From Chloroflexota bacterium (GTDB taxonomy: Bacteria; Chloroflexota; Dehalococcoidia; Lucifugimonadales; UBA2985): 64,000 nucleotides of DNA. The stretch lies in NCBI GenBank assembly GCA_027622595.1, contig JAQBZZ010000004.1:575-64574 (forward strand). The letters are read 5' to 3'. The position numbers were made by a program, and so were the translations under genes. The first letter of the stretch is position 1. Every line of letters starts with the position of its first letter. The notes below the pieces were generated by a model, which saw only the letters and a program-made list of their open reading frames with translations, did not search any database and was not told the origin of the DNA. Below are positions 21,362 through 57,817 of this stretch, piece after piece.

Positions 21362-21411
21362 GGCATACAGCTTCTTGGATACCATCTTCGAGTCATACTC
21401 CGGTACCTTGC
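21362..21411 (-). pseudogene. displaced remnant of the uvrB 3' end
   Basis: 46 of 50 nt are identical to 22534-22583, the real uvrB 3' end plus stop. It encodes ..VPEYDSKMVSKKL versus the uvrB end ..[13 protein letters not shown], and the stop is mutated (TAA to TAT). Confidence 0.7.
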
Positions 21412-21437
21412 TTCTCGGTTCAAACATGAGCTGATGG

Positions 21438-22430
21438 CTAGGGTATCTCTATTACGACCGTCCAACTGTCTTGACCGCTGATCTCTAGATAGAAACTGCC
21501 CTTTCGACCATAGATCAAGGTTTCCCCAGAAGGCTCGTTACTGATTAGGGTATCAATCCGCGCACCTGTAGCTGGGTTGTACAACGTAAGGTAAAGATTG
21601 CCCGTCGCTTCCCACTTCAATCGCCACGGCGATGCGTCCACTATGAACGGCAAGGTGTTCTGATGGCCAACGCCAGTGAAACTCGCAATTACTCCTGATG
21701 GGGGTGTTGCCGTTGGTAAAGGTGGGTACGTCGCTGTCGCAGTGGGTTCAGTCGTTGGAGTGGGCATGACTGTAGCTGTGGAAGCAGGGGTAATGGTTGC
21801 CTTCGGCGTAGGAGCGACCGTCGGCGTTAAAGGTATGTATGTCGCTGTCGCAGTAGGTACAATCGTTGGAGTCGGCGTGGCTGCAGCTGATGAAGCAGGG
21901 ATAGTGGTTGCCGTCGGCGTAGGAGCGAACGTCGGTATTGAAGCTATGTACCTCACCGTTGCAGTAGGCACTGAGGTGGCTGTCGGCAGAACTGACGGTC
22001 TGAGTCCACCGTCAGATGGTGATTGCTCATCGTCCTTCACAAGGGCTATTCCTAGTAGCAGGATAACAGAAAAAGCCCCAATCATCCCAAATATGAACCC
22101 CTTAGACACATGAGGCACTTTCCACCTGTCTGAGCGGTCGCCTGGGCGTGGAGGACGCGGGGGCGAGCCTGACTGCGATGGAGGTTGGGGTGGATCAGCA
22201 CTGGCGTAACCTCTTCGGGCAAGTTCATCTTGGTCGTATTGCCTGCGGCGGGTAGGGTCGCGTAAGGCTTCGTAGGCAATGTTCACAAGTTTCATCATCT
22301 CAACCGCATTCGGCGATTTGTTCCGGTCAGGATGCCAATAACTAGCCGCGCGATGATATGCTGCCTGCAGCTGTTCCTCGGAGCAGTCAGGAGCAACACC
22401 CAGGATGGTGTAATAGTTCTGTTCAGCCAT
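21438..22430 (-). CDS. J-domain (DnaJ-like) membrane protein with Pro/Thr-rich 37-aa repeats and a C-terminal beta-rich domain
   Basis: The N-terminus NYYTILGVAPDCSEEQLQAAYHRAASYWHPDRN carries the HPD motif. One TM helix (FIFGMIGAFSVILLLGIALV) follows, then P/T/A repeats, then an 85-aa C-terminal domain. Confidence 0.8.
   Translation of the reverse strand: MAEQNYYTILGVAPDCSEEQLQAAYHRAASYWHPDRNKSPNAVEMMKLVNIAYEALRDPTRRRQYDQDELARRGYASADPPQPPSQSGSPPRPPRPGDRSDRWKVPHVSKGFIFGMIGAFSVILLLGIALVKDDEQSPSDGGLRPSVLPTATSVPTATVRYIASIPTFAPTPTATTIPASSAAATPTPTIVPTATATYIPLTPTVAPTPKATITPASTATVMPTPTTEPTATATYPPLPTATPPSGVIASFTGVGHQNTLPFIVDASPWRLKWEATGNLYLTLYNPATGARIDTLISNEPSGETLIYGRKGSFYLEISGQDSWTVVIEIP
21727..21988. 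repeat. about 2.4 tandem copies of a 111-bp (37-aa) unit inside the J-domain gene
   Basis: Units start at 21727, 21838 and 21949. The protein repeat is PTATxxYIxxxPTxAPTPxATxIPASxAxxxPTPTxx. Confidence 0.8.
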
Positions 22431-22536
22431 TAGCTTCCTTGCCCAAGTTATGACGGTGGCATTACCGCATCTGCAAGGGTGAGATTCCCATTTAGTATGG
22501 CTACCGGAGTAGGCGTAGCTCTTGAGTCAGGCTGGC

Positions 22537-24555
22537 TTACAGCTTTTTGGATACCATATTCGAGTCATACTCCGGTTCCTTGCCGGAGGCCATGACCTTG
22601 CGAAGCTCCACCATTTCATCACGCAGCAGAGCAGCCTTCTCGAACTCCAGCGACCTGGACGCCAGTTTCATCTGGGACTCCAGGTCCTTGATCACACGCA
22701 GCAGGTCGTCCTTGGGCATGTCCCGGTGTACCTCATAGGTCGGGCGTCTCTCGGCCACGGCCTTTACCCGTTCCGTGATATCTCTGATGGCCTTGTGAAT
22801 GCCCTGTGGGGTGATGCCGTGTTCCCTGTTGTGTGCTTCCTGGATTTCCCGCCGCCGATAGGTCTCTCCAATCGCCTTTTTCATGGAGTCGGTCATGTTA
22901 TCGGCGTACATGATGACGTGGCCGTCGGAGTGGCGGGCCGCCCGGCCAATGGTCTGGATTAGCGACGACCCGGAGCGCAGGTATCCCTCCTTGTCCGCGT
23001 CCAGAATGGCAACCAGGCTGACCTCCGGCAGGTCGAGGCCCTCCCGAAGAAGGTTGATCCCGACCACCACGTCGTGCACACCCAGACGGAGGTCGCGGAG
23101 TATCTCGCTGCGCTCCAGCGTGTCGATCTCCGAGTGGAGGTAGTGGGTCTTGACGTTCATCTCCTGTAGATAGTCAGCCAGCTCCTCCGCCATTCGCTTG
23201 GTAAGGGTGGTCACAAGGCACCGCTCTCCCCTGTCCACCCGCGTCCGTATCTGGTACAGCAGGTCGTCGATCTGGCCCTTTGTCGGCTTGACCTCGATGG
23301 TGGGGTCAAGCAGGCCGGTTGGTCGTATGACCTGCTCAACCATCTGCTGGCTGTGGCTGTACTCGTAGGCGCTTGGCGTCGCAGAGACGTATACGGCCTG
23401 GTTTATATGCTTCTCAATCTCATCGAAGTTGAGAGGCCGGTTGTCCATTGCAGACGGCAGACGGAAGCCGTAGTCAACAAGGGTCTGCTTCCTGGACATG
23501 TCCCCGTGGTACATCCCATGCATCTGCGGAATGGTCATGTGGCTTTCGTCTATGAACAGGAGGTAGTCGTCTGGGAAGTAGTCCAGCAGACACCAGGGGG
23601 TGCTTCCCTTTGAGCGTCTTCCAAGGGGAGCGGAGTAGTTTTCGACGCCGGAGCAGTAGCCCGCCTCACGCAGCATCTCCAGGTCGTACCTCGTGCGGTT
23701 CTCAAGACGCTGCGCCTCCAGGAGCTTGCCCTGGTCGCGGAACCAACCGACACGTTCCTCCATCTCCGCCTTGATGTCCTCAATGGCCAGGACCAGCTTC
23801 TCTTCAGAAGTGACGAAGTGCTTGGCAGGATATATATCCACCGAGTCTCGCTCACCGAAGACCTCGCCCGTAAGCGGGTCGAGTTCTAGGATACGCTCCA
23901 CCTCGTCGCCCCAGAACTGGACCTGCAACGCCACGTCCTCATACGCGGGCAGTATCTCCAGCGTATCGCCGCGGACGCGGAACTTTCCACGGGAGAGGTC
24001 CATGTCGTTGCGCTCGTACTGCTGGTTCACGAGCCGGCGAATGAGCTTGGAACGACTGTTCTGCTCCCCCTTGCGGAGGGATACAACGAAGCTCTGATAC
24101 TCCTCAGGCGCGCCCAGACCATAGATGCAGGACACGGAGGCTACTATCAGTACGTCACGTCGGGTGAGGAGTGAGCGAGTAGCGGAGTGACGCAGCTTGT
24201 CGATCTCGTCGTTGATGTTGGAGTCCTTCTCTATATATGTGTCCGTCTGGGGAACATATGCTTCCGGCTGGTAATAGTCGTAGTAGGACACAAAGTACTC
24301 AACGGCGTTGTTGGGGAAGAACTCCCTGAACTCCGTGGCAAGCTGGGCCGCCAGGGTCTTGTTGTGGGCGATGACAAGGGTGGGACGCTGCACCTTCTCG
24401 ACGACGTTGGCCATCGTGAAGGTCTTGCCGCTGCCCGTGACGCCAAGCAGGGTCTGATGCCGCAGGCCCTTGTTCACACCCTCCGCGAGCATGTCTATGG
24501 CCTGGGGCTGGTCTCCCGTTGGCCCGTAGTCTGAAACGATCTTGAATTCTGGCAT
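22537..24555 (-). CDS. uvrB: excinuclease ABC subunit B
   Basis: [10 protein letters not shown] Walker A, helicase motifs and a C-terminal UVR domain are present. Confidence 0.97.
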
Positions 24556-24567
24556 GTTACCTTTGGC

Positions 24568-24783
24568 CTATGCTCCTACCGAAACCTTGAATACGACTTC
24601 CTCATCCCTTGGTATGGGCCACTTCGCCTCTATTAGCACCTCCAGATAGAGGTCTATCGCTTCCCTGACATTCCCCAGCGTCTCATCCAAGGTTTCTCCT
24701 TGGGAGTAGCAGCCGGGCAGTGCTGGCACTTCAACCCAGAACCCTCCCTTTTCAGCGCTGTGAACTATGACAGAATATTCCAT
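24568..24783 (-). CDS. hicB: HicB-family antitoxin (short form, no DNA-binding extension)
   Basis: MEYSVIVHSAEKGGFWVEVPALPGCYSQGETLDETLGNVREAIDLYLE is the classic HicB/UPF0150 fold signature. Confidence 0.75.
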   Translation of the reverse strand: MEYSVIVHSAEKGGFWVEVPALPGCYSQGETLDETLGNVREAIDLYLEVLIEAKWPIPRDEEVVFKVSVGA

Positions 24784-24793
24784 CTCAATAACC

Positions 24794-25006
24794 TTACAGG
24801 AGTTGTTCAAACTCCTCTACAGTAATCCCCGCCCTATCCAGGGCATCAAAAAGAATGCCTACCTTAACTGTGCCCCGATGAAACGGCAATACAAGCAGTC
24901 CCCTTTCAGGATGCCTGAGGATATAATGGCTACCCCGCGTCCGCGTTACCACATACCCCAATTTTTCAAAAGCCCGTATCGCGCGCTGTATTCTGACGTC
25001 TTACAC
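24794..25006 (-). pseudogene. hicA: hicA toxin gene with a stop at codon 2 (GTG-TAA)
   Basis: AGGAGA, then 10 nt, then GTG TAA, followed by an open frame DVRIQRAIRAFEKLGYVVTRTRGSHYILRHPERGLLVLPFHRGTVKVGILFDALDRAGITVEEFEQLL*. That frame matches the HicA pattern (.ai.a.ek.G...r..GSH....hp). No usable start codon follows the TAA. Confidence 0.6.
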
Positions 25007-25038
25007 TCTATGGGTTTCTCCTACTGCGATTTGGCCCA

Positions 25039-25809: not shown

Positions 25810-25894
25810 AGGTGGTTCTCCATTGAGGTTAGAGTCTAGCACCTCCCATTTTGGATCGGGTGCTAGGCCAAGATTGTCAGCCCTTACAAAAAAA

Positions 25895-26647: not shown

Positions 26648-26829
26648 CTGATTATTCCTTATGTGATATTTTGATGGCTCTTCGCGGGAATCTTATCATT
26701 GTCGGCCACCAAGGTCAAAGGCAGCAGGGCGAGCCCCTTCGTCAAGCTCAGGGCAGGCTCTGTACCCATAAAGGATATCAGGAGCCACATGTAGGATGCC
26801 TTGAGAAACTGGCCTCACACCCATAAGTT

Positions 26830-26951
26830 GTCATTACGAGGAGACGCAGGCGACCCGTTCGCTCTGGCTCAGGGTAAACTCCGCAATCTGGCCGTGGAGT
26901 GCGCCCCCCTCCAGATTGCCACGCCCCGATTTCATCGGGACTCGCAATGAC
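26830..26951. repeat. nested-palindrome REP/MITE-like element
   Basis: The termini are GTCATTACGAGG...CTCGCAATGAC, and the inner inverted repeat is GCAATCTGG...CCAGATTGC. It shares a 31-nt module, in inverted orientation, with the element at 32270. Confidence 0.85.
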
Positions 26952-26990
26952 GATGTCCTCCGCGGCAGCGAGAACTTCAGAGACGGGCCG

Positions 26991-29946: not shown

Positions 29947-30059
29947 CCTTATCGCCTATCTTTGGCTTCAAGTTGTTAGCTTCACCACTGTACCCAAGTG
30001 GTGAGGCGGCGTCAATGCAACACACCCCGCAAATGTCCAGTCCCAGAAGTTTGTCTAAT

Positions 30060-30164
30060 GTCATTGCGAGGCCCTACGAAGGAGGGCGGTGTCAATCTGG
30101 CCGTGGGGTGCGTCCCTCCTCCAGATTGCTTCGTCTCCCGACACGTCGGCATCCTCGCAATGAC
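30060..30164. repeat. nested-palindrome REP/MITE-like element
   Basis: The 12-bp termini GTCATTGCGAGG...CCTCGCAATGAC are perfect, and the inner inverted repeat is CAATCTGG...CCAGATTG. Confidence 0.9.
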
Positions 30165-30209
30165 AATTTACGGGTGTATTTCAAAGACACCCCACCACGC
30201 CAGTGGTCC

Positions 30210-31790
30210 CTACCCCTGGTGTATCAAGAAATACTCGAAACTATCGGCAAGGGCCATCCAACTGGCCTCGATGATGTTGCTGGAGGAGCCAACCGTCTGC
30301 CACTGGCTCTTGCCGTCGGTCGACTCGATGAGCACCCTCACCACGGCCCGCGTGTCCTGGCCCTGGTCGACCACCCGCACCTTGTAGTCCAGCAGCTTCA
30401 CAGCGTCCAGAGACGGGTATGACTCCAAAAGGCCCTTCCGCAGAGCGTTGTCCAGGGCGTTCACGGGGCCATTGCCCTCCGCGGCGGTGTGCATCAACTG
30501 AGAGCCAACCCTCACCTTGACAACCGCCTCCGACAGCATGTCCTCGTGGTCGCCGTTGGCAGGAGCGCGACGACGGTTTTCGACCAGCACCATGAAGTCC
30601 ACCATATCAAAGGGAGGACGGTAGCCATCCAGGCTCCTTCTCACCATCAACTCAAAGGAAGCCTCCGCCCCTTCGTACTGAAACCCCTTGCTCTCCTGCA
30701 ACTTCAACCTGTCGAGTAGAACGACCACCTGCTCCCGGCTCACCATGTCCGCCAACCCAAGTTCATTGAGTCGATGCAGAATATTCCCACGCCCCGATAG
30801 CTCGGAAATCACAACGCGCTTGGCGTTTCCAACCGTCTCCGGTGCGATGTGCTGGTAGCTCTCCTCCACCTTTGCCATCGCGGCCACGTGCAGACCTCCC
30901 TTGTGGCTGAAGGAACTGACGCCAACGTAGGGCTGCTGGCCGTTTGGAGGTATGTTGACTATCTCGCTGACGTAGTGGGATGCCTCCGTGAGACCGGCAA
31001 GCTGCTCGTCGGTCACGCAGGAAATGCCCATCTTCACCTTCAGATTGGCTATAATGGAGAGAAGGTTGGCATTGCCGCACCGCTCTCCATATCCATTGAT
31101 TGTGCCCTGCACCTGGGTGGCTCCAACCGTCACAGCGGCCAGGGTATTGGCAACGGCCATATCCGCATCACTGTGACAGTGGATGCCCAGAGGGGTCGTC
31201 ACTTCACGACGCACCAGAGAGACTATGTCGGTTATCTCCTTAGTCAGCATGCCACCGTTGGTATCGCACAGCACAAGGCAGTCCGCGCCGACTTCCGCCG
31301 CCACTTTAATGGTCTGAAGGGCGTACTCCGGATTGGCCTTGTAGCCATCGAAGAAGTGCTCGGCATCGTAGAAGACGGTGCGTCCCTGTTTCTTCATGTA
31401 AGAGACGGAGTCGGCAATCATCGCCAGGTTCTCCTCCAGCGTGGTCTCCAACACCCTGAGAACGTGGAGGTCTGAACTCTTTCCAACCAGGGTCACAGCG
31501 GGAGTCTCCGCCGCCAGCAGCGCCTTGATATTGCCGTCGTCCTCCACGCGTATTCCCGCCCGGCGAGTGCTGCCGAACGCGGAGATGCGAGCGTTCGAGA
31601 GAGGAATCGACTTGATTCTTTGGAAATACTCAACGTCCTTTGGGTTGGAGCCGGGCCATCCACCCTCGATGTAGTGGACCCCCAGTTCGTCCAGCTTGAG
31701 GGTAATCTTGATCTTGTCTTCCGCGGAAAGAGAGATACCCTCCTGCTGCGCTCCATCTCTCAGTGTGGTGTCATACAACTGTATTTCCAT
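30210..31790 (-). CDS. cimA: citramalate synthase (CimA, LeuA-like with a LeuA_dimer C-terminus)
   Basis: MEIQLYDTTLRDGAQQEGISLS...YIEGGWPGSNPKD matches the CimA-type N-terminus. The start is the ATG at 31790. The preceding Ile T-box fits a role in isoleucine biosynthesis. Confidence 0.8.
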   Translation of the reverse strand: MEIQLYDTTLRDGAQQEGISLSAEDKIKITLKLDELGVHYIEGGWPGSNPKDVEYFQRIKSIPLSNARISAFGSTRRAGIRVEDDGNIKALLAAETPAVTLVGKSSDLHVLRVLETTLEENLAMIADSVSYMKKQGRTVFYDAEHFFDGYKANPEYALQTIKVAAEVGADCLVLCDTNGGMLTKEITDIVSLVRREVTTPLGIHCHSDADMAVANTLAAVTVGATQVQGTINGYGERCGNANLLSIIANLKVKMGISCVTDEQLAGLTEASHYVSEIVNIPPNGQQPYVGVSSFSHKGGLHVAAMAKVEESYQHIAPETVGNAKRVVISELSGRGNILHRLNELGLADMVSREQVVVLLDRLKLQESKGFQYEGAEASFELMVRRSLDGYRPPFDMVDFMVLVENRRRAPANGDHEDMLSEAVVKVRVGSQLMHTAAEGNGPVNALDNALRKGLLESYPSLDAVKLLDYKVRVVDQGQDTRAVVRVLIESTDGKSQWQTVGSSSNIIEASWMALADSFEYFLIHQG

Positions 31791-32100
31791 GATTCCCCCT
31801 ACAAAATAGAAAAATCCCGTCCCCAAGGGACGGGATCATTTGAAAGAATCCCGCGGTACCACCCTTTTTCCCCGGCTTTCAATTACAACTTACACCGGGG
31901 CGCTCATTCAGGGCACCATCATGCCCTCGTCACTGGTAACGGTGTGCGACTCCGGCCCGGTCTACTAACCCAAAGCCCTTTGTGGTTTTCGGCGGGCAGC
32001 TCAGGAGTGATCTTCCAGGGGGCCTTTCGCGTCTGCTCCCACCATGCCAGACTCGCTTGGCGAGGGCGTCCCCCGTACTCGTCTCCGTCTTTGCTTTTGT
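31791..32100 (-). promoter_or_regulatory. T-box riboswitch leader, apparent specifier AUC (Ile)
   Basis: Read on the minus strand, it has the AGUA box in ACGAGUAC and the distal Stem I motif AGCGAGUCUGGCAUGGUGGGAGC. The specifier loop UGGAAG-AUC-A places AUC at 32011-32009. The F-box CCGUUA lies at 31942-31937 and the T-box AGGGUGGUACCGCGGG at 31852-31867. The UGGU bulge matches a tRNA with discriminator A. Confidence 0.85.
31810..31836 (-). terminator. T-box terminator hairpin plus U-tract
   Basis: The minus strand reads ATCCCGTCC-CTTG-GGGACGGGAT followed by TTTTTCTATTTT. Its 5' arm can pair alternatively with the T-box antiterminator. Confidence 0.75.
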
Positions 32101-32137: not shown

Positions 32138-32269
32138 GATTTTAGATGGGTGACTGCCTACTTTGTAGCAAGCGTTCCTCACCACTTGCGATGCATATCT
32201 CTTTCGGGAGTCCGTAAGAACTCTTGAAACGCATGCCAGTGCGGTGTATCTGTAATACACCTTTATAAT

Positions 32270-32391
32270 GTCATTGCGAGGCTCGACGAAGGAGAGCCGT
32301 GGCAATCTGGCGTGGGGTGCCCCCTCTTCAGGCTGCGGAGTTTACCCTGAGCCAGAGCGAACGGGTCGTCCCGATTTATCGGGACTCGCAC
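32270..32391. repeat. REP/MITE-like element with one degraded terminus
   Basis: It starts GTCATTGCGAGG and ends GGGACTCGCAC. It contains TGCGGAGTTTACCCTGAGCCAGAGCGAACGG, the reverse complement of a module in the 26830 element. Confidence 0.8.
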
Positions 32392-38598: not shown

Positions 38599-39501
38599 AT
38601 GGTTACAGTAGGCAGGCTTATCACAGCAATGGTCACTCCCTTCGATGGACAGGGCGAGATCGACTACGCCCAGGCAAGGCGTTTGGCCTCGGCCCTCCTC
38701 GACTCAGGAAGCGACGGGCTGGTGGTATCCGGCACCACAGGGGAGTCCCCCGCCCTCACCAAGGACGAGAAGCTGCGCCTCTTTAAAGAGATAAAGGCAG
38801 AGTTGGGCGACCGCGGCGCGGTCGTGGCCGGCACCGGGAACTACAGCACGGCGGAGAGCATCGAGTTGACCCGTGAGGCAGAGAAGGAAGGCGCGGACGC
38901 CGCTCTCCTGGTTGTCCCCTACTACAACAAGCCAACGCAGGAGGGACTGTACCTGCACTTCAAGGCCATCGCCGAGAGCACCAGCCTGCCCTGCATCCTG
39001 TACAACGTGCCCAGCCGCACAATAACCAGCCTCTCCTGGGAGATTACTTTGCGACTGGCCCAGGTGGACAACATCATAGGAGTGAAGGAAGCCAGCGGCG
39101 ACTTCGACCAGATTGCACGTATCATCGCCGGCGCGCCCAAGGGTTTCCAGGTCTGGAGCGGCAACGACAGCGATACCTTTGGCATCATGACGATGGGCGG
39201 CTACGGCGTCGTCAGCGTGGCCTCGCACCTGGTTGGACGTCAGATTAAAGGGATGATGGACATGATACTGGCAGGGAAGACAGCAGAAGCGGCCTCGGAG
39301 CACCTTCGTCTGACCCCTATATTCAAGGGCCTCTTCATCGTGTCAAACCCCATCCCGGTGAAGTACGGCGTAAACCAGGCAGGCTTCAACGTCGGCAAGC
39401 CCAGACTACCCCTTACGGAGCCTGACGAAAGGACGGCTCAACAGCTTCAGGCGATGATGAAGGAGTACGCCATAGACCTGCCTGTCACCGCACGGGTGTA
39501 G
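38599..39501 (+). CDS. dapA: 4-hydroxy-tetrahydrodipicolinate synthase
   Basis: GTTGES, YNVPSRT and the IIGVKEASG lysine motif are present. Confidence 0.95.
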   Translation: MVTVGRLITAMVTPFDGQGEIDYAQARRLASALLDSGSDGLVVSGTTGESPALTKDEKLRLFKEIKAELGDRGAVVAGTGNYSTAESIELTREAEKEGADAALLVVPYYNKPTQEGLYLHFKAIAESTSLPCILYNVPSRTITSLSWEITLRLAQVDNIIGVKEASGDFDQIARIIAGAPKGFQVWSGNDSDTFGIMTMGGYGVVSVASHLVGRQIKGMMDMILAGKTAEAASEHLRLTPIFKGLFIVSNPIPVKYGVNQAGFNVGKPRLPLTEPDERTAQQLQAMMKEYAIDLPVTARV

Positions 39502-39536
39502 CGCAGCGAATTTAGGAGGATAGAGTTTTAAGTTAT

Positions 39537-40532: not shown

Positions 40533-40570
40533 CGATTTCCATTCTCCTGGAAAGCAAAAGGGGCGACCCG

Positions 40571-40681
40571 TCACCCGTGCAGAAAACTTTCCAGCGCCTT
40601 GGTAAGCTGCTGGGGTCGGTGAAGCTGAATGTCGTGGGCCGTGTCCGGAAACCACTCAACACGTCCGTCGCGGACGAGTTC
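40571..40681 (-). pseudogene. displaced remnant of the alpha/beta-hydrolase 3' end
   Basis: It encodes ELVRDGRVEWFPDTAHDIQLHRPQQLTKALESFLHG*, against ELVRDGREEWFPDTAHDIQLHRPSELAKVLESFLHG* in the intact gene at 42685. By hand count, 84 of 91 nt are identical in the core. Confidence 0.8.
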
Positions 40682-40728
40682 CCGCACCGCTCATCCTGAG
40701 CCTGTCGAAGGACATAAGGGAAAAACAG

Positions 40729-42660: not shown

Positions 42661-42684
42661 CCTACCCAGTGCCAGAGCTCCCCG

Positions 42685-43533
42685 TCACCCGTGCAGAAAA
42701 CTTTCCAGCACCTTGGCAAGCTCACTGGGTCGGTGAAGCTGGATGTCGTGGGCCGTGTCCGGAAACCACTCCTCGCGACCATCCCTGACCAGTTCCTGCG
42801 CCGCACGCACCGCCTCTCGTTTCCTGTCGTTTGCCTCCACCCTGTCCAACGAGGGACTCAGAGCGGCCGCGAAGAGCACGGGCATTTCAAGCTTTGGGTA
42901 AAGCTCCCTGGCGTTGAGGTCGCCCATAGCCTGTAGGATACGGACGTTGTTCTCCCGCGAAAGGCGCTCGCTTATGGAACCGTCGGGGTTGACGGTGACG
43001 CTGGCCATGAGTATCTCCTCTATCTCAGGGGTCATTACGTCACGAAATCCACCACCAGACGCCTGTAGGTAAGTCTGCCTGTTCTGGTAAACCTCGGGCG
43101 GTGCCATCATCTGCGTATAGTCGGGCGGCGATCCATCCAGCGTCCTGCGGCGGCCTCCAAACCCTCCATCTACCAGCGCCAGGTGAGATATTGTTCCAGG
43201 ACTGGAAGCTGCCAGGCTCAGCGCTACCCCCGCGCCCCAGGAGTGGCCGGCCAGCAGCGCTCCCTCTATGCCTATCTCCCGACATAGCTTCTCCACGTCG
43301 CCGGCGACGGTCTGGTAGTCATACCCCCAGTCGGGCTTGTCCGATTGGCCGTGGCCGCGTAAATCCACGGATATCACCCTGTGCTCCTGGGCAAGGAGAC
43401 GAGCGGTAAGAGACCAGTACTCGGCGCACACAGTCAGACCGTGAAGCAGCAACACAGGAGAGCCGTCTCCCTCCCACTCCAGGTACCGAAGGGATATTTC
43501 TGAATTTGCAGTAACCTTAGCTATGGGATTCAT
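42685..43533 (-). CDS. alpha/beta hydrolase
   Basis: The HGLT oxyanion region and the GHSWG nucleophile elbow are present. I trimmed the start to the ATG at 43533. Confidence 0.8.
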   Translation of the reverse strand: MNPIAKVTANSEISLRYLEWEGDGSPVLLLHGLTVCAEYWSLTARLLAQEHRVISVDLRGHGQSDKPDWGYDYQTVAGDVEKLCREIGIEGALLAGHSWGAGVALSLAASSPGTISHLALVDGGFGGRRRTLDGSPPDYTQMMAPPEVYQNRQTYLQASGGGFRDVMTPEIEEILMASVTVNPDGSISERLSRENNVRILQAMGDLNARELYPKLEMPVLFAAALSPSLDRVEANDRKREAVRAAQELVRDGREEWFPDTAHDIQLHRPSELAKVLESFLHG

Positions 43534-43689
43534 GTATTTGGAAAGAGCCGTGCCATTCCAGCTACGGGACCATCGTAGTCTTACTGGCCATTGTAACTCC
43601 ACAGGGAGATGAGTCAAGGCGCGGTAGACCCTGTGGGCCTTGACGTGAGGCTCATAGCAACGGGATAATCAATTCCCCTGGCAACAAAT

Positions 43690-44307
43690 ATGAGTGACTT
43701 CTTACCGGCTTCCGTTTCCATTGCAGGTGCTTTCCTGTTGGGGTCGTTGCCGTTCGCGTACTGGGTAGCCAGGGCCGTGGCGGGAATAGACATCCGCCTA
43801 GCGGGAAGCGGCAACCCGGGAGCACTCAACGTCTACCGCCAGGTGGGAGGAAAGGCCGCACTGGCGGTCGTGCTTCTCGACGTAGCGAAAGGGGCTGTGG
43901 CGGTCCTGCTGCCGCGGTGGCTCGGAGCTCCTGAGCCGGTCCTGTACCTGGCGGCATTTACCGCGGTGGCGGGACACAACTGGTCTGTATTTCTCGGACT
44001 GCGGGGAGGAAAGGGCGCTGCAACCGTCGCCGGCATATCTTTGACCCTGCTACCCTTGCTGACGGTCGTAGTAGTGCCGTTCCTGGCACTGGCTTTGATG
44101 ATGACAAAGAACGCAGTCGTATCCATTGCCCTTACCTTCATCCTTCTCAACGTGCTCACCATCGCCACAGCCCAGCCCTTAGCACAGATTGGCCTCTGCA
44201 TGGGTCTATCCATCCTTGTGGCAGGGACTCACCTCTACCGCGCGGGAGCACAGATAGTGCCTGCTGTTAAAGAGAAGCGATGGACTGACATCACTCGTGT
44301 GGAGTGA
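43690..44307 (+). CDS. plsY: glycerol-3-phosphate acyltransferase PlsY
   Basis: The GSLPFAYWV and GSGNPGALNV motifs are present, with 5-6 TM segments. Confidence 0.9.
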   Translation: MSDFLPASVSIAGAFLLGSLPFAYWVARAVAGIDIRLAGSGNPGALNVYRQVGGKAALAVVLLDVAKGAVAVLLPRWLGAPEPVLYLAAFTAVAGHNWSVFLGLRGGKGAATVAGISLTLLPLLTVVVVPFLALALMMTKNAVVSIALTFILLNVLTIATAQPLAQIGLCMGLSILVAGTHLYRAGAQIVPAVKEKRWTDITRVE

Positions 44308-44434
44308 GAGTTCTTCACACACATCTTCGTATCAAACAAATGAGATATAATGAGGCGGCAGGCTTGCCATGCTGTCTGTGGTAAGCTTGCCGAACTATCG
44401 AAGATTGAATTTACAGAAAACAAATTTACAAAAT

Positions 44435-45647: not shown

Positions 45648-46280
45648 TTGGACCGTCCTTTAAAAGAAAGTTCCGGGGCCACGGCAACCAGGTACAACCG
45701 GATTGCCGGTATCTACGACCTGTCTGAATATCTGGTTGAACGGCTGCTGTATCGCCGCTGGCGCAGACGACTCTGGTCTCTGGTAACACCTGGTCGTGGC
45801 CTTGAGGTCGGGGTTGGCACCGGCAAGAACATCCCCGACCACCCCTCGGACAGCCGGATCACCTCCATCGACATGAGCCCCAAAATGCTGAAACAGGCCC
45901 GACGCCAGGCGGATAGACTGGGCACCCCTGTAGAACTGGTTGAGATGGACGCCGAACACCTGGACTTTCAGGACGATACCTTTGATTGGGCCGTGGCGTC
46001 CTTCGTCTTCTGCTCGGTGCCAAATGCCGTAGAGGGTCTCAGAGAGCTGGACAGGGTGGTCAAACCTGGCGGCCCCATCCTGCTTCTGGAGCACGTGCGT
46101 ATCGACAGACCGTTGATAGGCAGGCTGATGGACATTTGCAATCCCCCGGCCGTTCGTGTCACCGGCGCCAACATCAACCGCCGTACGGTGGAAAACGCAG
46201 CGAGGTCGGGGCTCAAGATCGAAGCTGTGGAAGACCTGACACCCCTTGGGGCGTTCAAGCTGATTACCGCCCGTTCTTGA
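45648..46280 (+). CDS. class I SAM-dependent methyltransferase (Methyltransf_11-like)
   Basis: Motif I is LEVGVGTGKN, and LKPGG-like VKPGG is present. The start codon is TTG. Confidence 0.75.
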   Translation: MDRPLKESSGATATRYNRIAGIYDLSEYLVERLLYRRWRRRLWSLVTPGRGLEVGVGTGKNIPDHPSDSRITSIDMSPKMLKQARRQADRLGTPVELVEMDAEHLDFQDDTFDWAVASFVFCSVPNAVEGLRELDRVVKPGGPILLLEHVRIDRPLIGRLMDICNPPAVRVTGANINRRTVENAARSGLKIEAVEDLTPLGAFKLITARS

Positions 46281-46312
46281 GCGAATGGCCGTGGTTATCC
46301 AGAGGGTGGCTC

Positions 46313-47155
46313 TTACCTCGGCGGTCGACGGCTAGCCGAGCTACTGGGTTTCCGAGCAAGTGCCCTATAGCATGTTAAGCACACAGGTTTGGCATAACTG
46401 ACATCCGCATCTTTACCGCACGAGTGGCATACGGCCTCCTGATAATCCACATCTCCAAATCCAGCCCAAATCTCGTAGCAGTCATCGCACAGCGGCCTTG
46501 CCACATCCAGAGATAACCCCTCTCCACAGCGTATACAGAAGCCTGTCTTAGTTCGAGCACGGGGAGCGCCTGTCCTTTTAGGTGCTCTGGTGCTGGGAGC
46601 AGCCGTGTGTGCGTTAACAATACGGTTCTTTGACCTAGCAAAACCTGCGCCGGCCAGTTCTTGCCGGCCATGAGGGCTCGCTAGTCGGAGCAGTCTTGAA
46701 GCGACATAATCCCTGATTATCTTGGCCTCGCTGGGGTCGTTGATGAGGGTAGCGATTTCAAAGGACTCTGTACCCGATGACTGGGTCAGATTCATTGAAC
46801 TGGTTATCACCGTACTCTCGTTGAGATATATCTTTGCGTGCAGCCTGTCTAGTGTTAAGACCACCACCTGGTTGTCTTCAAGCCACTGAATATCTGAACT
46901 CCGAACAACGTCGGGGTCATTCCGAACCAAGAAGGTAACCTTGGCACTCCGCTTGACCGCCAATTGCACTGCATTCTTGACATGTCCCCATAGAGCTATA
47001 TAGGGACTGACAACCATGACGTATTCTTGGGCCTCGCCAATGACGGATAGAATACGGTTTGAAACTTGCTCGTCCTTGAAGACGGTGTTCAAAATGCTCT
47101 CCACGTATCCGCTAGGGTTCGATCCGTCAGCCCAATGGTTGCACAGGGAGCACAT
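46313..47155 (-). CDS. single-HKD phospholipase D-family (Nuc-like) protein fused to a C-terminal double CxxC zinc ribbon
   Basis: LHAKIYLNESTVITSSMNLT is an HxK..(N)....SxN variant of the HKD motif. A basic linker (APKRTGAPRARTKTG) follows. Then comes CIRCG...CDDC...CHSCG...CLTC. Confidence 0.6.
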   Translation of the reverse strand: MCSLCNHWADGSNPSGYVESILNTVFKDEQVSNRILSVIGEAQEYVMVVSPYIALWGHVKNAVQLAVKRSAKVTFLVRNDPDVVRSSDIQWLEDNQVVVLTLDRLHAKIYLNESTVITSSMNLTQSSGTESFEIATLINDPSEAKIIRDYVASRLLRLASPHGRQELAGAGFARSKNRIVNAHTAAPSTRAPKRTGAPRARTKTGFCIRCGEGLSLDVARPLCDDCYEIWAGFGDVDYQEAVCHSCGKDADVSYAKPVCLTCYRALARKPSSSASRRPPR

Positions 47156-52495: not shown

Positions 52496-52506
52496 GAGGA
52501 TGAGAC

Positions 52507-52791
52507 ATGACTATACCAAGAGAGACGGACGAACTCACCATGGTGGATGCACGGCGGGAGCTCACCAAGCTGCCCGAGAAGCTGGAGTCCCATCCGGCGA
52601 CTGTGGCGGTCACCCGGCGAGGCAAGCCAGTCCTGGCCATCATGACCTGGAGTGACTACGAGGTAATCCTGGAGACGCTGGAGGTCCTCAGCGACGACGA
52701 GGCCGTTGAGCAGCTACGTCGCAGCATCCGGGAGGTGAAGGAAGACAAGGCCATTCCCTGGGAGGACGCCAAGGCCCGGCTCAGGATTTAG
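52507..52791 (+). CDS. Phd/YefM-family antitoxin
   Basis: ARRELTKLPEKLE...VAVTRRGKPVLAIMTWSDYEVILETLEVLSD is typical of Phd/YefM. It lies downstream of its toxin. Confidence 0.7.
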   Translation: MTIPRETDELTMVDARRELTKLPEKLESHPATVAVTRRGKPVLAIMTWSDYEVILETLEVLSDDEAVEQLRRSIREVKEDKAIPWEDAKARLRI

Positions 52792-52873
52792 CCCACAGGC
52801 TTAGGAGGCGCGAGTGCCAAAGGGAGGCGTCACGATACTTGCGTTCACTTATCCATTGTACCAGACCACTATT

Positions 52874-54406
52874 TTATAAGCTTCGGTCCCACCTCTGCCA
52901 AGCGCCGAAAAATTCCACGCTCACCACTGCCAAGGAACCACCGAATGAATGGCTCTCCCCCCCCCCCCGACGCGATCGTTTCTTGGGGTCATGTTGAGCA
53001 GGCTCACGAGATTTACGGAGACTATCAAGAGCGGAGGGGAGTTTACTAGCGAGGAAACGTTGGTCATCTTCACTCACGCCTCGGTCCTGGACAAATGCCC
53101 TAAAGAACGGGCGCCGACAAACCCATGCATAATTGGAAAGAGTGGGATGCCATCCTCGCGTTTGAAAGTCGTCATCCTTCTGCCGAAACTCTAGGAGATC
53201 TAGGCCTCCTTTGGCCTGCTGGAGCGGTTCCCATATAAAAGCATGGCACATGGTTTCGGCCGCTACTTGCAACTCATTCAATATGGCCTCAAGCCCTATT
53301 CGGGCCTCGGAAAACCAGAGCAAGTCTACATTCACTAGGCGCTCTTGAGCTCGCTGCTGTATCTTATCCCACCACTCTCCAAAGAAGTACCCTTTCAGCC
53401 GAGTTTCCGAAGCCTTTTCTTTTTCTTGGCGCAGGTATTCACGTAGCTCATTCTGCCCTAACTGAGCCTCTGCCCATCCTTGGGCACGATGCCAGTAGAC
53501 GTCCCAATGTTCTTCCTCTCCATCGCCGTTCAGGATTCTTGCATCAGCCAACACTTCATCAGTTGTCAAAGCTAACAAGTTGCAGTAGGCAGCCACTAGT
53601 CGCCAACTCTCGGCCTTGTTCCGCAGGCGCAGTCCTTCGAAGACGTTCACCACCTCCTGAGGCTCTAGGTTAAGCAGGGGGAAGTATCCGCCTAGCTTCA
53701 TACGAAAGGCCCGCTCATCTTCTAAGTCCGCCTCTTCAATGCTGCCCACCTCTATCAGCCATTCTGGCTCGATATCAGTGGCAAATGAAATAGCCTCAAA
53801 TCCTTCCAGCGCTTCCACAGCCAATTTCAGTGCATCCTCATACACACCATCCAGATATTTAATACGGAAGAGTGCGCTCAGGGCCAATGCACTGACCCCC
53901 CAGAAGGAAACAACGCCCATCGGAGCGTCTGACGCACCAGCTAATGAAGGTTCGAAGGCGCGAATATCGGAATGGTATAGAACCTGCCTTATCCTATTCA
54001 AGGTTTGGCTCACATCATCGTAGTTTTGGTTTCTGGCGTGGAGCCTGAGTGCATACGCGGCAGCAATATGGACATACCGACTGGCATCTGAGAAGTCCAT
54101 GGAGTCAGCGGCATCGGGTTCATACGGGATTCGTGCCCAGCGCTCAAGCTCAGTTAGCGTTTCCAGGACTGTACTTTCCTCATCTTCGGGAAGTGGCTGG
54201 GGAGAAGCTGGGTGCCATACATTCCAAAACAACTCTTCAGCGTTATCGTCAACTTTACCAGAGGCTATCGCCGCGATAGACTTCACAATCTGAAGGACGT
54301 CGTTCCTATACGTATCACCTTGCCTCATAGCTTCAGCAAGACGCGGAAGGAGCGCTCGTGCCTTCGTCTCAAATTCAATGGTGGTGTTGTCATCGCTAGT
54401 AGCCAT
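52874..54406 (-). CDS. hypothetical 510-aa protein (mostly helical, C-terminal Rx4H motif, G12 tract near the 3' end)
   Basis: It is a long clean ORF, visibly more AT-rich than its neighbours. I recognise no family. LDSLRKSREPAQHD lies near the C-terminus. Confidence 0.6.
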   Translation of the reverse strand: MATSDDNTTIEFETKARALLPRLAEAMRQGDTYRNDVLQIVKSIAAIASGKVDDNAEELFWNVWHPASPQPLPEDEESTVLETLTELERWARIPYEPDAADSMDFSDASRYVHIAAAYALRLHARNQNYDDVSQTLNRIRQVLYHSDIRAFEPSLAGASDAPMGVVSFWGVSALALSALFRIKYLDGVYEDALKLAVEALEGFEAISFATDIEPEWLIEVGSIEEADLEDERAFRMKLGGYFPLLNLEPQEVVNVFEGLRLRNKAESWRLVAAYCNLLALTTDEVLADARILNGDGEEEHWDVYWHRAQGWAEAQLGQNELREYLRQEKEKASETRLKGYFFGEWWDKIQQRAQERLVNVDLLWFSEARIGLEAILNELQVAAETMCHAFIWEPLQQAKGGLDLLEFRQKDDDFQTRGWHPTLSNYAWVCRRPFFRAFVQDRGVSEDDQRFLASKLPSALDSLRKSREPAQHDPKKRSRRGGGESHSFGGSLAVVSVEFFGAWQRWDRSL

Positions 54407-54416
54407 TGTTTGCCCC

Positions 54417-54452
54417 CTACTCCATATCTTCCCACGTCTGCCCCGCCTTCAC
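54417..54452 (-). pseudogene. displaced remnant of the polA 3' end
   Basis: It encodes VKAGQTWEDME*, against the polA C-terminus LKTGYTWGDME*. A 17-nt perfect core (CCCCCTACTCCATATCT) is shared with 55009-55025. Confidence 0.55.
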
Positions 54453-54681
54453 CTTAAGCCAACCCAGATGTCGGCAGTGATCTCACGGCCCATGATTTCC
54501 GCTACCTCTCGCAGCAACACTCGCAACTGCGGCACTGAATATTCGGCATTGGATGGGACGGCCAAGCGGTACTGCTGATAGACCATGAACTGGTGGCGGG
54601 TGCCGGAAAGGGGCCGTCAAAACCCAGCTTTCGGAGGCGCCGCACAAACTCGCGGCGTCTACAGGGTCTCCACCGGCTCAC
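54449..54681 (-). pseudogene. hicA: HicA/YcfA-like toxin gene with a frameshift
   Basis: A GTG start gives MSRWRPCRRREFVRRLRKLGFDGPF. The frame then shifts near 54603-54612. The other frame continues GTRHQFMVYQQYRLAVPSNAEYSVPQLRVLLREVAEIMGREITADIWVGLR*. The joined sequence matches the HicA pattern (LGF....G..H). Confidence 0.6.
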
Positions 54682-54925
54682 GGCGTGGCTTTCTGTTTAA
54701 ATCGATGCCGTCGATAACTGGCAATGGGTGACCCAGTTTGAGACCGACCAGAATCCAGTCCTCCATGGTGGAGCGCAATTCGTCCTGACATTCACTCAGG
54801 GTCGCACCAAAGCCAACCACGCCCTTACGGGACGGGATGTGACCTGCAAAGGTGCCGTCCACCAGCTTATCGTAGACCGCCTGGGACAGAGCCTGCTCTA
54901 CATAGTCTGTTAGGACAAACTGCAT
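54659..54925 (-). CDS. hicB: HicB-like antitoxin
   Basis: MQFVLTDYVEQALSQAVYDKLVDGTFAGHIPSRKGVVGFGATLSECQDELRSTMEDWILVGLKLGHPLP matches the HicB-like antitoxin family pattern. Confidence 0.7.
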   Translation of the reverse strand: MQFVLTDYVEQALSQAVYDKLVDGTFAGHIPSRKGVVGFGATLSECQDELRSTMEDWILVGLKLGHPLPVIDGIDLNRKPRREPVETL

Positions 54926-55012
54926 GGCAATAGTGCACCTCGTTACCACCTCAAATCATACCACTAAACCCGTTATGCCACATACTAAACCACCGTCTTT
55001 TTACCTGACCCC

Positions 55013-57817
55013 CTACTCCATATCTCCCCAGGTGTAACCTGTCTTCAACTCCACACTCAGTGGCACGATAAGTTCAAGGGCCGCGGGCATCAACTCCAGC
55101 ACCATCGCCCGCATGACCTCCATCTCCTCCACCGGCACCTCGAAGATCAGCTCGTCGTGGACTTGCAGGATCATCCTGGTACGCAGGCCATCTTCCTGCA
55201 TACGCTTGTCTATGTTTATCATCGCCAGCTTGATGATGTCCGCGGCGGTGCCCTGAATGGGCATGTTCACCGCCATCCGCTCGGCGGCCTGCCTCACCTG
55301 GAAGTTGGATGCGTTGACCTCAGGGATGTAGCGGCGGCGGCCACACATCGTCTCAAGGTAGCCCAGCTTCCTGGCCTGCGCCTTGGTGGCCTCCAAGTAC
55401 TCCTGAATGCCGGGGTATCTGGCAAAGTAGCTTTCGATGAACTTGGCCCCCTCGTCACGGGGCAGGTCGGTCTGCTGCGAGATGCCGTAGGCGCTGAGTC
55501 CGTATACAACTCCGAAGTTCATTATCTTGGCGATGCGCCTCATGTCCGATGTCACGGCGTCGAGGGCCACCCCGTACACCTGGGACGCGGTCGCCGCGTG
55601 GATGTCCTCGCCACGCAGGAAGGCGTCCACCAGCCCCTTGTCCTCGGAGAGATGTGCAAGCACTCTCAACTCTATTTGCGAATAATCGGCGGCAAGGAGC
55701 GTCCACCTTGGCGCGTCCTGGGCAACGAAGGCCTTGCGCACCTCCCGGCCAAGCTCCGTACGGACGGGTATGTTTTGCAAATTGGGGTCGTTGCTGGAGA
55801 CGCGCCCCGTTGCCGACCCCGTCTGGTTGTAGCTTGTATGCACCCGCCCGGTCCAGTGGTTGATGAGTTGCGGAAGGGCGTCCACGTAGGTCGACTTCAG
55901 CTTGGCGAGCTCCCTGTATTCCAGGATGCCGTCAAGGACCTGAGGGGCCCTTGGATCCGCGCCCTCCGCATGCCCCTCGTTTATCATCACCTTCAGGTTT
56001 TCTAACACCGAGGCATCGGTGGAGTAGCCCGTCTTGGTGCGCTTGGTCTTTGGAAGCCGCAGCTCGTTGAACAGCACCTCGGCCAGTTGCTGGGTGGAGT
56101 TGAGCATGAACCGATGGCCCACGGTCTGAAGCACCTCATCCTCCACCTGGAAAAGGCGTTCGCCAAGAGTCTTCGACATCTCATTGAGGCGTTCTGCATT
56201 CAGGGATACGCCGTTGCGCTGTATCCTCACAAGCACAGGCACCAGGGGCACCTCCATATTGGCGAAAACGTCCCTCAGCTTGCTCTCAGGCTTCATCTCG
56301 ACCTCGAACAGGTCTCGCAAACGCTGCGTCATGTCTGCGTCCGCGGCGGCGTACTTCGATGCCTCGCCGACGGGCACCTGTGCCATTGTCTTTTGATTAC
56401 GGCCCGTGCCGATGAGGGCATCGATGTGGGTCATCTCAACGTTCAGGCGGGTGAAGGCGAGGCTCTTGAGACCGATGGCCTTCTCTCCAAGCAGGTGCGC
56501 CGCCACCATCGTATCGAAGTCAAGGTTGCGCACCTCAATGCCGTAGTTGGCAAGCACCGTCATATCGTAGTTGCCGTTGTGGGCGGTTTTGGCCACGCTG
56601 GGGTCTTCCAGCAGGGGCTTGAGGAGGGCCAAGGCTTCTTCGATGGGAATCTGTTTTCCCTCCAAGTGCCCAACCGGTATGTAGCTCGCGGTGCCTGAGG
56701 CGCTTGAAAATGAGAGGCCAACAAGGTCGCAGGCCATCGGGTCCTTGCCGGTGGTCTCCAGATCGAAGGCGAAGCTGCCCGCGCCCTGCAAATCCGATAT
56801 AAGGGCCACCAGGTCTTCGACGTTGTCAACGGTGTGGTAGTCCCCTTCTATTGCAGTCTCCGCGGCCATGAGCACTCCCTGGGACGCCTGCTCCGTCGAG
56901 TCGTCCGCGACCTTGGGAACACGGGCCACGATGCTGTTGAACTCAAGCTCACGCAGCAGGGAAAGCACCTTCTCGCGGTCGTAGCGCCAGAAGCGGCACG
57001 CTTCCGCGTCCAGGGTGATCGGCACCTCGTCGACTATGGTGGTGAGTTCAAGGCTCTGCCTTGCATCGGCCTCGTGGTATGCCAGCAGATCGCGTATCCG
57101 TGGTGGTGCTACCTTATCGAGGTTGGCATAAATCCCATCAATGCTGCCATAGTCCTGTATCAGCTTGATGGCGGTCTTCACACCTATGCCGGGGACTCCC
57201 CGAATGTTGTCCGAGGTATCACCCTGCAGGGCCTTCACATGCGGCTGTTGAGTCGGGGTCAAGCCGCCATACCGCTCACGGACCGCTGCCAGGTCGTAGA
57301 TGACCCTGTCCTGGATGCTGCGGTTCAGGGCAACACGCACGGTGGGGGAAACAAGCTGGAGGGTGTCGGTGTCGCCTGTGAGGATGATGGTGTCCATGTC
57401 CTGTTCGGTGGCCTGCCGGCAGAGGGTGCCAATAACGTCGTCGCCCTCGTACTCCTCCACCTCGAATATGGGGACGTTGAAAGCCTCCATCAGGCGTCGC
57501 ACCCAGGGAAACTGCCCTCTCAGGTCCTGGGGGGTCTCGGGCCTCTGTGCTTTGTAATCGGCGTACATGATGTGCCTGAAGGTGGGCGCAGGCAGGTCAA
57601 AAGCGATGGCGCAGTGGCTCGGTCTCCACTCCTGAATGGCCTTTATGAATGCGTTGGCGAAGCCGTACACGCCCCGCACGTCCTCTTCGGTCTTGCTCAA
57701 CGTGAGGGGCGCAGGAATGGCATGCCACGCCCTGTGCACCATCGCATGCCCGTCCATGAGCATGAGGAACGGCCTTTCCGGCAAGAGAGGCATTGTTTCC
57801 GGTTTAGTATTTGGCAT
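55013..57817 (-). CDS. polA: DNA polymerase I
   Basis: It has a 5'-3' exonuclease N-terminus and a 3'-5' exonuclease domain (FAFDLETTG). Pol motifs A (DYSQIELR), B (RRIAKIMNFGVVYG) and C (QVHDE) are all present. Confidence 0.97.
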   Translation of the reverse strand: MPNTKPETMPLLPERPFLMLMDGHAMVHRAWHAIPAPLTLSKTEEDVRGVYGFANAFIKAIQEWRPSHCAIAFDLPAPTFRHIMYADYKAQRPETPQDLRGQFPWVRRLMEAFNVPIFEVEEYEGDDVIGTLCRQATEQDMDTIILTGDTDTLQLVSPTVRVALNRSIQDRVIYDLAAVRERYGGLTPTQQPHVKALQGDTSDNIRGVPGIGVKTAIKLIQDYGSIDGIYANLDKVAPPRIRDLLAYHEADARQSLELTTIVDEVPITLDAEACRFWRYDREKVLSLLRELEFNSIVARVPKVADDSTEQASQGVLMAAETAIEGDYHTVDNVEDLVALISDLQGAGSFAFDLETTGKDPMACDLVGLSFSSASGTASYIPVGHLEGKQIPIEEALALLKPLLEDPSVAKTAHNGNYDMTVLANYGIEVRNLDFDTMVAAHLLGEKAIGLKSLAFTRLNVEMTHIDALIGTGRNQKTMAQVPVGEASKYAAADADMTQRLRDLFEVEMKPESKLRDVFANMEVPLVPVLVRIQRNGVSLNAERLNEMSKTLGERLFQVEDEVLQTVGHRFMLNSTQQLAEVLFNELRLPKTKRTKTGYSTDASVLENLKVMINEGHAEGADPRAPQVLDGILEYRELAKLKSTYVDALPQLINHWTGRVHTSYNQTGSATGRVSSNDPNLQNIPVRTELGREVRKAFVAQDAPRWTLLAADYSQIELRVLAHLSEDKGLVDAFLRGEDIHAATASQVYGVALDAVTSDMRRIAKIMNFGVVYGLSAYGISQQTDLPRDEGAKFIESYFARYPGIQEYLEATKAQARKLGYLETMCGRRRYIPEVNASNFQVRQAAERMAVNMPIQGTAADIIKLAMINIDKRMQEDGLRTRMILQVHDELIFEVPVEEMEVMRAMVLELMPAALELIVPLSVELKTGYTWGDME

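Follow-up and report, generated by a model that had tools for sequence, protein, structure and literature searches.

Displaced gene ends beside accessory-gene insertions in a marine SAR202 genome, most likely scars of recombination

Described systems and three junctions of comparable form

When re-circularised fragments integrate by a single crossover during conjugation in E. coli, duplications of 109-950 bp of the homologous locus are formed, at 10 times the frequency of homology-facilitated illegitimate recombination (PMC3240628). The latter, described in S. pneumoniae, Acinetobacter and P. stutzeri, combines a homologous anchor with an illegitimate joint at short microhomology, and foreign genes are gained beside conserved genes (PMC3240628, PMC5361080). 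In the C-terminal displacement at Rhs, contact-dependent inhibition (CDI) and type VI secretion system (T6SS) effector loci, a new tip and its cargo are inserted after the conserved 5' part and the old 3' end is kept downstream; orphaned 3' ends and orphan immunity genes are found at such loci (PMC5361080). Cis-mobilizable elements (CIMEs) occupy the 3' ends of fda, rpsI, rpmG and rplL (PMC7563491). Here we describe junctions of comparable form in a 64-kb stretch (the window) of a metagenome-assembled genome (MAG) of marine SAR202 (Chloroflexota). At the 3' ends of uvrB, an alpha/beta hydrolase gene and polA, a cargo of one or two genes is bounded by the intact gene end on one side and by a displaced second copy of that end, the orphan, on the other (Table 1). 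The feature is real and recurrent and is the footprint of an insertion. It is most likely a scar of recombination, not a new class of mobile element.

The repeats at uvrB, hydrolase and polA are 57, 124 and 42 nt long, with periods of 1172, 2114 and 596. At all three sites, the copy lying upstream in the orientation of the gene is the true 3' end of the intact gene. Self-comparison for direct repeats at most 5 kb apart gave scores of 39, 73 and 19, respectively, against a maximum of 16 in 20 composition-preserving shuffles. The remaining matches within 5 kb were one intragenic domain repeat and elements resembling repetitive extragenic palindromes (REP-like), and neither this comparison nor the window-wide one found further gene-end repeats in the window. 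Window-wide, the uvrB and hydrolase repeats have E values of 3e-14 and 2e-35, whereas the polA repeat, the weakest of the three, is absent from the matches at E<=1e-3. The polA orphan is nevertheless in register with the stop codon, and its translation, VKAGQTWEDME*, is a polA-like C-terminus. No integrase or transposase domain was found in the sizeable open reading frames (ORFs) of the window by Pfam scan or among precomputed Pfam hits, the cassettes have no terminal inverted repeats, and an Rfam scan of the window returned a T-box leader and a tRNA, nothing more.

These results bear on a preceding sequence-only reading of the same DNA. Its three periods were exact on re-computation, its matches do exceed chance, and the absence of integrase, transposase and terminal inverted repeats from the 64 kb was confirmed, as was the ability of the cargo to face either way (the BsuPI gene on the plus strand, the DnaJ and hicBA cassettes on the minus strand). 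However, the identities that it gave as 92, 92 and 77% for uvrB, hydrolase and polA were measured as 89, 86 and 81%. The orphans were said to include the stop codon, which is true of the hydrolase orphan, with frame and stop kept, and of the polA orphan, but not of the uvrB orphan, in which TAA has become TAT. The cassettes were also called promoter-bearing; a scan for sigma-70 promoters and terminators, covering the uvrB and polA cassettes, found nothing, and an extended -10-like element, TGGTATGAT, upstream of hicB is the sole promoter-like element visible. The description of the targets as housekeeping genes does not suit the hydrolase, which is itself flexible and is missing from one related lineage (L098-L105).

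The further statement that nothing similar had been described is too strong, as PMC7563491, PMC5361080 and PMC3240628 give analogues. Judged by analogy, the closest mechanistic counterparts would be laboratory insertion-duplication and homology-facilitated illegitimate recombination, and the closest natural architecture would be the C-terminal displacement of Rhs and T6SS loci. CIMEs and the replacement ends of the icd/e14 type would come nearest to what the earlier reading had in mind. Similar to the window insertions, the laboratory inserts lie between direct copies of the homologous segment, of variable length, involve no site-specific recombinase, and leave the gene intact if the fragment includes its end (PMC3240628). 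However, the window events are natural, their homology is very short at 42-124 nt, their cargo is one or two chromosomal accessory genes, and a circle would have to be supposed. Homology-facilitated illegitimate recombination typically yields an insertion with a deletion, whereas the joint in the window lies upstream of the end of the homology and a duplication results. The displaced tips of Rhs, CDI and T6SS loci are distinct toxin domains under diversifying selection, whereas the window repeats the very same gene end, with cargo that bears no relation to the target. CIMEs resemble the window insertions as small, integrase-less cargo bounded by direct repeats that include a conserved gene 3' end. 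They differ in deriving from integrative and conjugative elements (ICEs) or integrative and mobilizable elements (IMEs), as well as in sharing att sites with integrase-bearing elements; none such was seen in the window, and one of the cases described below lies at a 5' end.

Table 1. Positions of the features at the three junctions and of the palindromic elements of the window and its relatives
Feature	Position	Strand	Basis or remark
uvrB, intact target, 672 aa	22537..24555	-	Pfam UvrB domains
Resident uvrB 3' end (last 47 nt including stop, and 10 nt beyond)	22527..22583	-	Repeat, 89%
Cargo 1: DnaJ-domain membrane protein, 330 aa	21438..22430	-	PF00226
Orphan uvrB 3' end, stop mutated	21355..21411	-	Repeat and alignment
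Conserved membrane protein, 296 aa, native downstream neighbour of uvrB	20223..21113	-	Synteny in relatives
Alpha/beta hydrolase	42685..43617	-	Pfam
Resident hydrolase 3' end	42681..42804	-	Repeat, 86% over 124 nt; 5' 35 nt match L095 allele
Cargo 2: BsuPI-domain putative lipoprotein, 643 aa	40729..42660	+	PF12690
Truncated REP-like hairpin element	40690..40713	+	Exactly at inner joint of orphan and cargo 2
Orphan hydrolase 3' end, frame and stop kept	40567..40690	-	Repeat and alignment
GSII-type glutamine synthetase-like gene (glnII), 331 aa	39537..40532	+	Pfam
polA, intact target, 934 aa	55013..57817	-	Pfam
Resident polA 3' end	55009..55050	-	Repeat; matches L084 at 41/45 positions
Cargo 3a: hicB antitoxin (UPF0150)	54659..54949	-	PF21748, E 4e-24
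Cargo 3b: hicA-like toxin, frameshifted near 54612	54449..54681	-	Similarity judged by eye, no Pfam hit
Orphan polA 3' end, carries GGAGTAGGGGG	54413..54454	-	Repeat and alignment
Gene of 510 aa, function unassigned	52874..54406	-	Starts 10 nt after orphan's stop; unrelated genes there in relatives
Loci following polA	window 52874-54420; L084:12802-13723; L085:12802-13338; L098:12805-13336
REP-like copies, window	7186-7241; 63746-63803; 40690-40713
REP-like copies, relatives	L083:19290-19400, 21090-21300; L084:2281-2373, 5518-5587, 14292-14381, 15084-15153
MITE-like copies	30059-30166; 26851-26954; 32239-32368

The insertion sites in relatives

The window was compared with many long contigs from relatives whose UvrB and PolA are 85-93% identical. 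The uvrB site is empty in at least five lineages, namely in L083, L092, L093, L097 and L106-L115 (ten contigs, P0006 lineage), where the 296-aa gene begins about 155-250 nt after the uvrB stop. A metagenome scan with the 296-aa neighbour returned two loci, both with empty sites; a scan of a genome collection with full-length uvrB gave, among the matches listed, only distant taxa at <=71% identity, of no use for synteny. At the empty site of L083, the real uvrB end and its spacer run collinear with the window's orphan and the spacer of about 250 nt that follows it, so the orphan marks the native position. In L082, the closest relative, two unrelated genes stand at the uvrB site with no flanking repeat. 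The DnaJ cargo was not seen at the uvrB site in any relative examined. It is a singleton at 90% and 50% clustering, and its best full-length homologue is 42% identical, with none higher over the full length among representatives of about 15 billion proteins. The possibility that the orphan is a relic of a longer ancestral C-terminus was rejected, since none of the close relatives ends at a different residue: UvrB proteins at 84-93% identity are of equal length and share the C-terminus ...L*, as found in all 66 relatives with at least 84% identity and a complete C-terminus.

Three further observations were made around uvrB. The Pro/Thr/Ala-rich linker of the DnaJ cargo gene holds a 111-nt tandem duplication of 84% identity (21717-21938). 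The alternative cargo of L082 (L082:11951-12826) includes a convergent 291-aa ORF which, as called, overlaps the last 69 nt of uvrB. A second hicA-hicB module (24568-24995, minus strand), whose hicA has no obvious start codon, lies between a methyltransferase gene and uvrB; it is also present in L097 and absent from L082, L083 and L106, and no flanking duplication of it was found.

In relatives, the hydrolase gene is convergent with DHDPS at a distance of 25 or 314 nt, with neither glnII nor the BsuPI gene between them, whereas the two are separated in the window by glnII, the orphan and the BsuPI gene. In other relatives, insertion sequence (IS) elements adjoin the hydrolase, or the hydrolase is missing. 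The BsuPI gene is convergent with the hydrolase and co-directional with glnII, whose stop codon lies 38 nt from that of the hydrolase orphan. The ORF of the hydrolase extends to 43617, with an orthologue-length start near 43533 (282 aa, as in its homologues), and a SAR202 single-cell genome is present among the hydrolase matches. The assignment of the contig to SAR202-type Chloroflexota draws on this genome, on an NCBI 'Chloroflexi bacterium' annotation and on an ENA scaffold. A truncation of the 331-aa glutamine synthetase by the insertion was considered and rejected, as 331 aa is in keeping with the GSII type and a search of the other frames found no continuation. The interval between DHDPS and ThiI (window 39501-44369) holds from 0 to 4 genes across lineages, with 0 in one lineage, 1 in another, and 4 genes and the orphan in the window. 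This interval is a hotspot of gene gain, also seen at L086:20351-21656, L098:18420-18566 and L091:7679-11644, with IS3-family elements in a fourth lineage.

At polA, the gene that follows differs per lineage, being of 510 aa in the window and of 292 aa, 173 aa or none elsewhere. The real polA stop lies 15-43 nt before the next gene in relatives, and the orphan takes that place in the window, 10 nt before it. The motif GGAGTAGGGGG is kept in all lineages compared, 10-43 nt before the next gene, and doubles as polA end and Shine-Dalgarno sequence; within the polA orphan, it acts as the Shine-Dalgarno region of the 510-aa gene. The stop codon TGA of hicA falls within the first bases of the orphan. 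The frameshift in hicA may have made the gene a pseudogene or may be an error of sequencing; hicB appears to be intact.

The comparison thus upholds the earlier claim of an insertion beside the gene end with displacement of the native end: the uvrB site is empty or holds alternative cargo in relatives, and all three orphans stand at the native position. Rearrangement in situ without transfer, by tandem duplication and later deletions or by decay of a paralogue, would be in keeping with the similarity and direct orientation of the copies. However, it requires that the cargo was native and then duplicated, whereas the cargo is absent from these sites in the close relatives examined and no protein of at least 90% identity to it exists in the collection. 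As ordinary tandem duplication followed by gene loss, this had been named in advance as an outcome that would overturn the insertion; the relatives show empty sites and no full-length paralogues, and we consider it quite improbable.

A fourth case was found in L097, a relative whose UvrB is 92% identical to that of the window. An 82-nt repeat of 97.6% identity and a period of 546 flanks a complete hicB-hicA cassette (L097:1854-2481). The repeat consists of 5 nt upstream of uvrB and its first 77 nt, and the orphan 5' end directly follows a HicB-like gene, at the place of the uvrB start in the window. When each of the related loci was compared with itself, no scars other than this one were revealed. 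The architecture is therefore recurrent in this clade and, because the L097 repeat sits at the 5' end of uvrB, it is not restricted to 3' ends. Such duplications can be recent, as the one in L097 evidently is.

A chimeric join of strains during metagenome assembly would suit a source that is a MAG, in which the orphans and their resident counterparts resemble alleles from strains that occur together. Yet the uvrB junction occurs in two contig records, and the window proteins were traced to an ENA scaffold (53,814 nt) and an NCBI MAG contig (64,773 nt), though in both instances the records may derive from the same reads. In addition, the copies at the three loci differ by 11-19% and keep register with the gene ends, the joints are all of unique sequence with no shared k-mer, and a similar structure is present in the unrelated JGI assembly that contains L097. 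We give an assembly artefact very little credence.

Junction anatomy and a proposed route of insertion

The outer edges of the repeats lie 5-12 nt past the stop codon (5 nt before the ATG in L097), and at uvrB the edge stays near the stop though a spacer of about 250 nt was available. At uvrB and polA, lineages with different neighbours are no longer alignable beyond the outer edge, so the limit of the duplication is also the limit of homology between lineages. The inner edges are found 38-120 nt into the gene and are unrelated to one another in sequence. The four junctions involve three unrelated genes and four different target sequences, and no shared core of at least 6 nt was found among their eight boundaries. 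A 5-mer, GAGCT, that occurs close to three of the four left boundaries, with about 0.2 such 5-mers expected by chance, was dropped as a boundary motif. At the inner joint of the hydrolase, the only joint assessable without donor sequences, the truncated REP-like element overlaps the hydrolase sequence by 4-7 nt, GCGG(TGC); its 24-mer has an exact copy in L084 and near-identical copies in L084 and L083. The overlap fits the microhomology of 3-10 bp reported at illegitimate joints (PMC3240628).

Two mechanisms had been offered earlier, recombination anchored in conserved gene ends, which we favour, and cassettes mobilised in trans, which fare less well. In the second, non-autonomous integrative cassettes resembling CIMEs or pseudo-staphylococcal cassette chromosome (pseudo-SCC) elements would be moved by site-specific tyrosine or serine recombinases encoded elsewhere, with the replacement gene end as att site, as in elements that target tRNA genes or icd. 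An intact end, a cargo and a displaced end are the footprint that such elements leave, and the three window sites match it in form, as if the element had brought a replacement 3' end. The e14 and phage 21 elements at icd and pseudo-SCC at rlmH are analogous elements at gene 3' ends. Integrase-less CIMEs of 1.2-13 kb are known at the 3' ends of protein-coding genes (PMC7563491), and the uvrB site has different cargo in two lineages. However, several unrelated targets would demand several recombinase specificities, no att core common to the eight boundaries was found, and none of the relatives examined has an integrase-bearing element at the end of uvrB, polA or the hydrolase gene. The alternative cargo of L082 has no flanking repeat, L097 duplicates a gene 5' end, which the logic of tRNA islands does not predict, and the insertions, of 0.5-2 kb and unrelated content, hold no ICE or IME remnant. 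Mobilisation in trans is in our judgement unlikely. Transposons, IS elements and miniature inverted-repeat transposable elements (MITEs) do not match either, with no inverted repeats, duplications of 42, 57, 124 and 82 nt, and no transposase in the window; nor do integron cassettes, as the ends are neither shared nor inverted repeats, no intI is present and the sites are dispersed.

The two uvrB copies are mutually closest, and so are the hydrolase copies over their 3' 90 nt; this implies that the donor belonged to the same population. Over its 5' 35 nt, the resident hydrolase end agrees with the L095 allele and the orphan with an L091-like allele. The hydrolase copies differ at many synonymous positions, and the variant residues of the orphan are found in functional alleles of relatives. 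At polA, the resident end shares 34/45 positions with its own orphan, against the higher figure for L084 in Table 1. Insertion with long staggered cuts of 40-125 nt, filled in to long target-site duplications of which selection keeps those spanning a gene end, would account for the mutually closest copies and for the 97.6% identity of the L097 repeat, and no donor arrangement was found. We know of no bacterial system making such long, variable duplications. Staggered cuts also give no reason for an outer edge always 5-12 nt from a stop or start, even with the long uvrB spacer, or for an orphan whose 5' part carries another natural allele than the resident, and the cargos share no ends. Such cuts we hold to be about as doubtful as mobilisation in trans.

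Unrelated targets, no shared core, no recombinase in the window, either orientation, variable length, and both 5' and 3' cases together argue for a sequence-independent process that uses gene-end homology. With a little more confidence than doubt, we propose a recombinase-independent insertion-duplication with one-sided homology, either by a Campbell-type single crossover or by homology-facilitated illegitimate recombination, rather than mobile cassettes that bring integration machinery of their own. A short fragment from a closely related cell, carrying a conserved gene end and the neighbouring accessory gene of that cell, would recombine with the recipient via the conserved gene end. The other end of the fragment, for which the recipient has no homologue, would form an illegitimate joint within the same gene, a few tens of nucleotides in. 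The fragment might circularise and integrate by a single Campbell-type crossover, or it might remain linear and undergo homology-facilitated illegitimate recombination with the illegitimate joint upstream of the end of the homology; in a mirror version, the orphan and the downstream gene would be the incoming piece. The product would be an intact gene, the cargo, a truncated second gene end and the original neighbour. Both this route and the existence of donors are what we infer from the junctions; the polarity of insertion, the orphans at their native places, the lack of recombinases in the window and of shared cores, and the 5' case are observed.

This insertion-duplication would also account for the kind of scar that is seen. 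Only duplications spanning the stop (or the start) would keep the gene intact, and the need for an intact gene would explain why scars are confined to gene ends. Short, diverging repeats would resist deletion; the repeats are short because long ones recombine out and long terminal homology would give clean replacement. A toxin-antitoxin cargo (hicBA in two of the four cases) or a ribosome-binding site in the orphan, as at polA, might add selection for retention. Such a process predicts scars at both 5' and 3' ends, whereas an att-type system at 3' ends does not. The hydrolase and polA repeats are near-identical beside the stop and much more diverged upstream. These gradients could arise if ordinary homologous recombination later replaced the allele of the resident gene and halted at the cargo because the cargo is non-homologous, and at polA the gradient could reflect selection on the ribosome-binding site of the orphan. 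The suggestion that the insertions are of different ages is plausible, but the gradients within these two repeats muddy the dating.

Several points weigh against the proposed route. No donor arrangement, i.e., the cargo beside the same gene without an orphan, was found by searching with the cargo proteins, and at 90% identity the DnaJ protein, the BsuPI protein and the glnII-like protein are all singletons. When uvrB, the hydrolase gene and polA were compared with relatives in sliding windows, neither a clear donor tract nor a clear breakpoint emerged, the relatives being too distant. Classical homology-facilitated illegitimate recombination usually gives an insertion with a deletion and not a duplication (PMC3240628), and a single crossover over just 42-57 nt of homology is inefficient. 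The identity gradients require the extra assumptions of allelic replacement or selection on the orphan. Moreover, the window has three scars in 64 kb against one in about 170 kb from close relatives, with near-identical loci counted once, a density that the model leaves unexplained. A more speculative account, to which we attach only slight weight, is that SAR202 may circulate tiny homology-addressed cassettes, each of one or two genes with 40-125 nt of gene end as an address read by RecA, whose small circles would excise between the repeats and re-integrate in any relative, like an integron without integrase; or an unknown enzyme might insert DNA with very long staggered duplications.

Variable spots nearby and the meaning of the scars

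Comparison of the window with relatives revealed at least 7 variable spots over the roughly 50 kb that are comparable, 3 of which carry gene-end orphans. Between ThiI and a CsoR-like repressor (45648-47155), the window has two genes that L084 and L086 lack there, one for a methyltransferase of 210 aa and one for a PLD-like protein of 280 aa, and no flanking repeat of this insertion was found. Relatives carry IS3, IS110 and Mutator transposases nearby, unrelated to the junctions.

Two families of palindromic elements were also noted. A family of intergenic REP-like hairpins occurs in the clade, with the sequences CCGCTCATCCTGAGC...GTCGAAGGAC...ATGAGCGG and GGTTCGACAAGCTCACCA(C/T)GAGCGG, and one of the elements forms a perfect hairpin of 23 bp (z = -10.9). 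In L084, direct repeats that surround the mqn operon and Lit were tried as further scars and rejected, being copies of these hairpin elements. The other family is a palindromic, MITE-like element that is about 110 nt long, has TGTCATTGCGAGG termini and shows strong folding (z = -4.8). Its copies flank leuA (30210-31826) and its leader in direct orientation with a spacing of 2210, the leader being a T-box (RF00230, 102 bits; 31823-32100, minus strand) upstream of leuA.

Streamlined marine bacteria such as SAR202 have few classical mobile elements, yet they differ from one another in many single accessory genes lodged between conserved ones. The junctions are most likely a natural counterpart of a known type of event, relevant to the gain of single genes in these bacteria. 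The share of variable spots with orphans suggests that recombination with one-sided homology accounts for an appreciable part of the gains. Gene-end scars are a readable record of the arrival of genes, as they give the polarity of insertion and tell which copy is native. If this holds genome-wide, such scars could serve for counting and dating the genes gained by uncultivated lineages, and they could help to explain why toxin-antitoxin modules settle beside essential genes.

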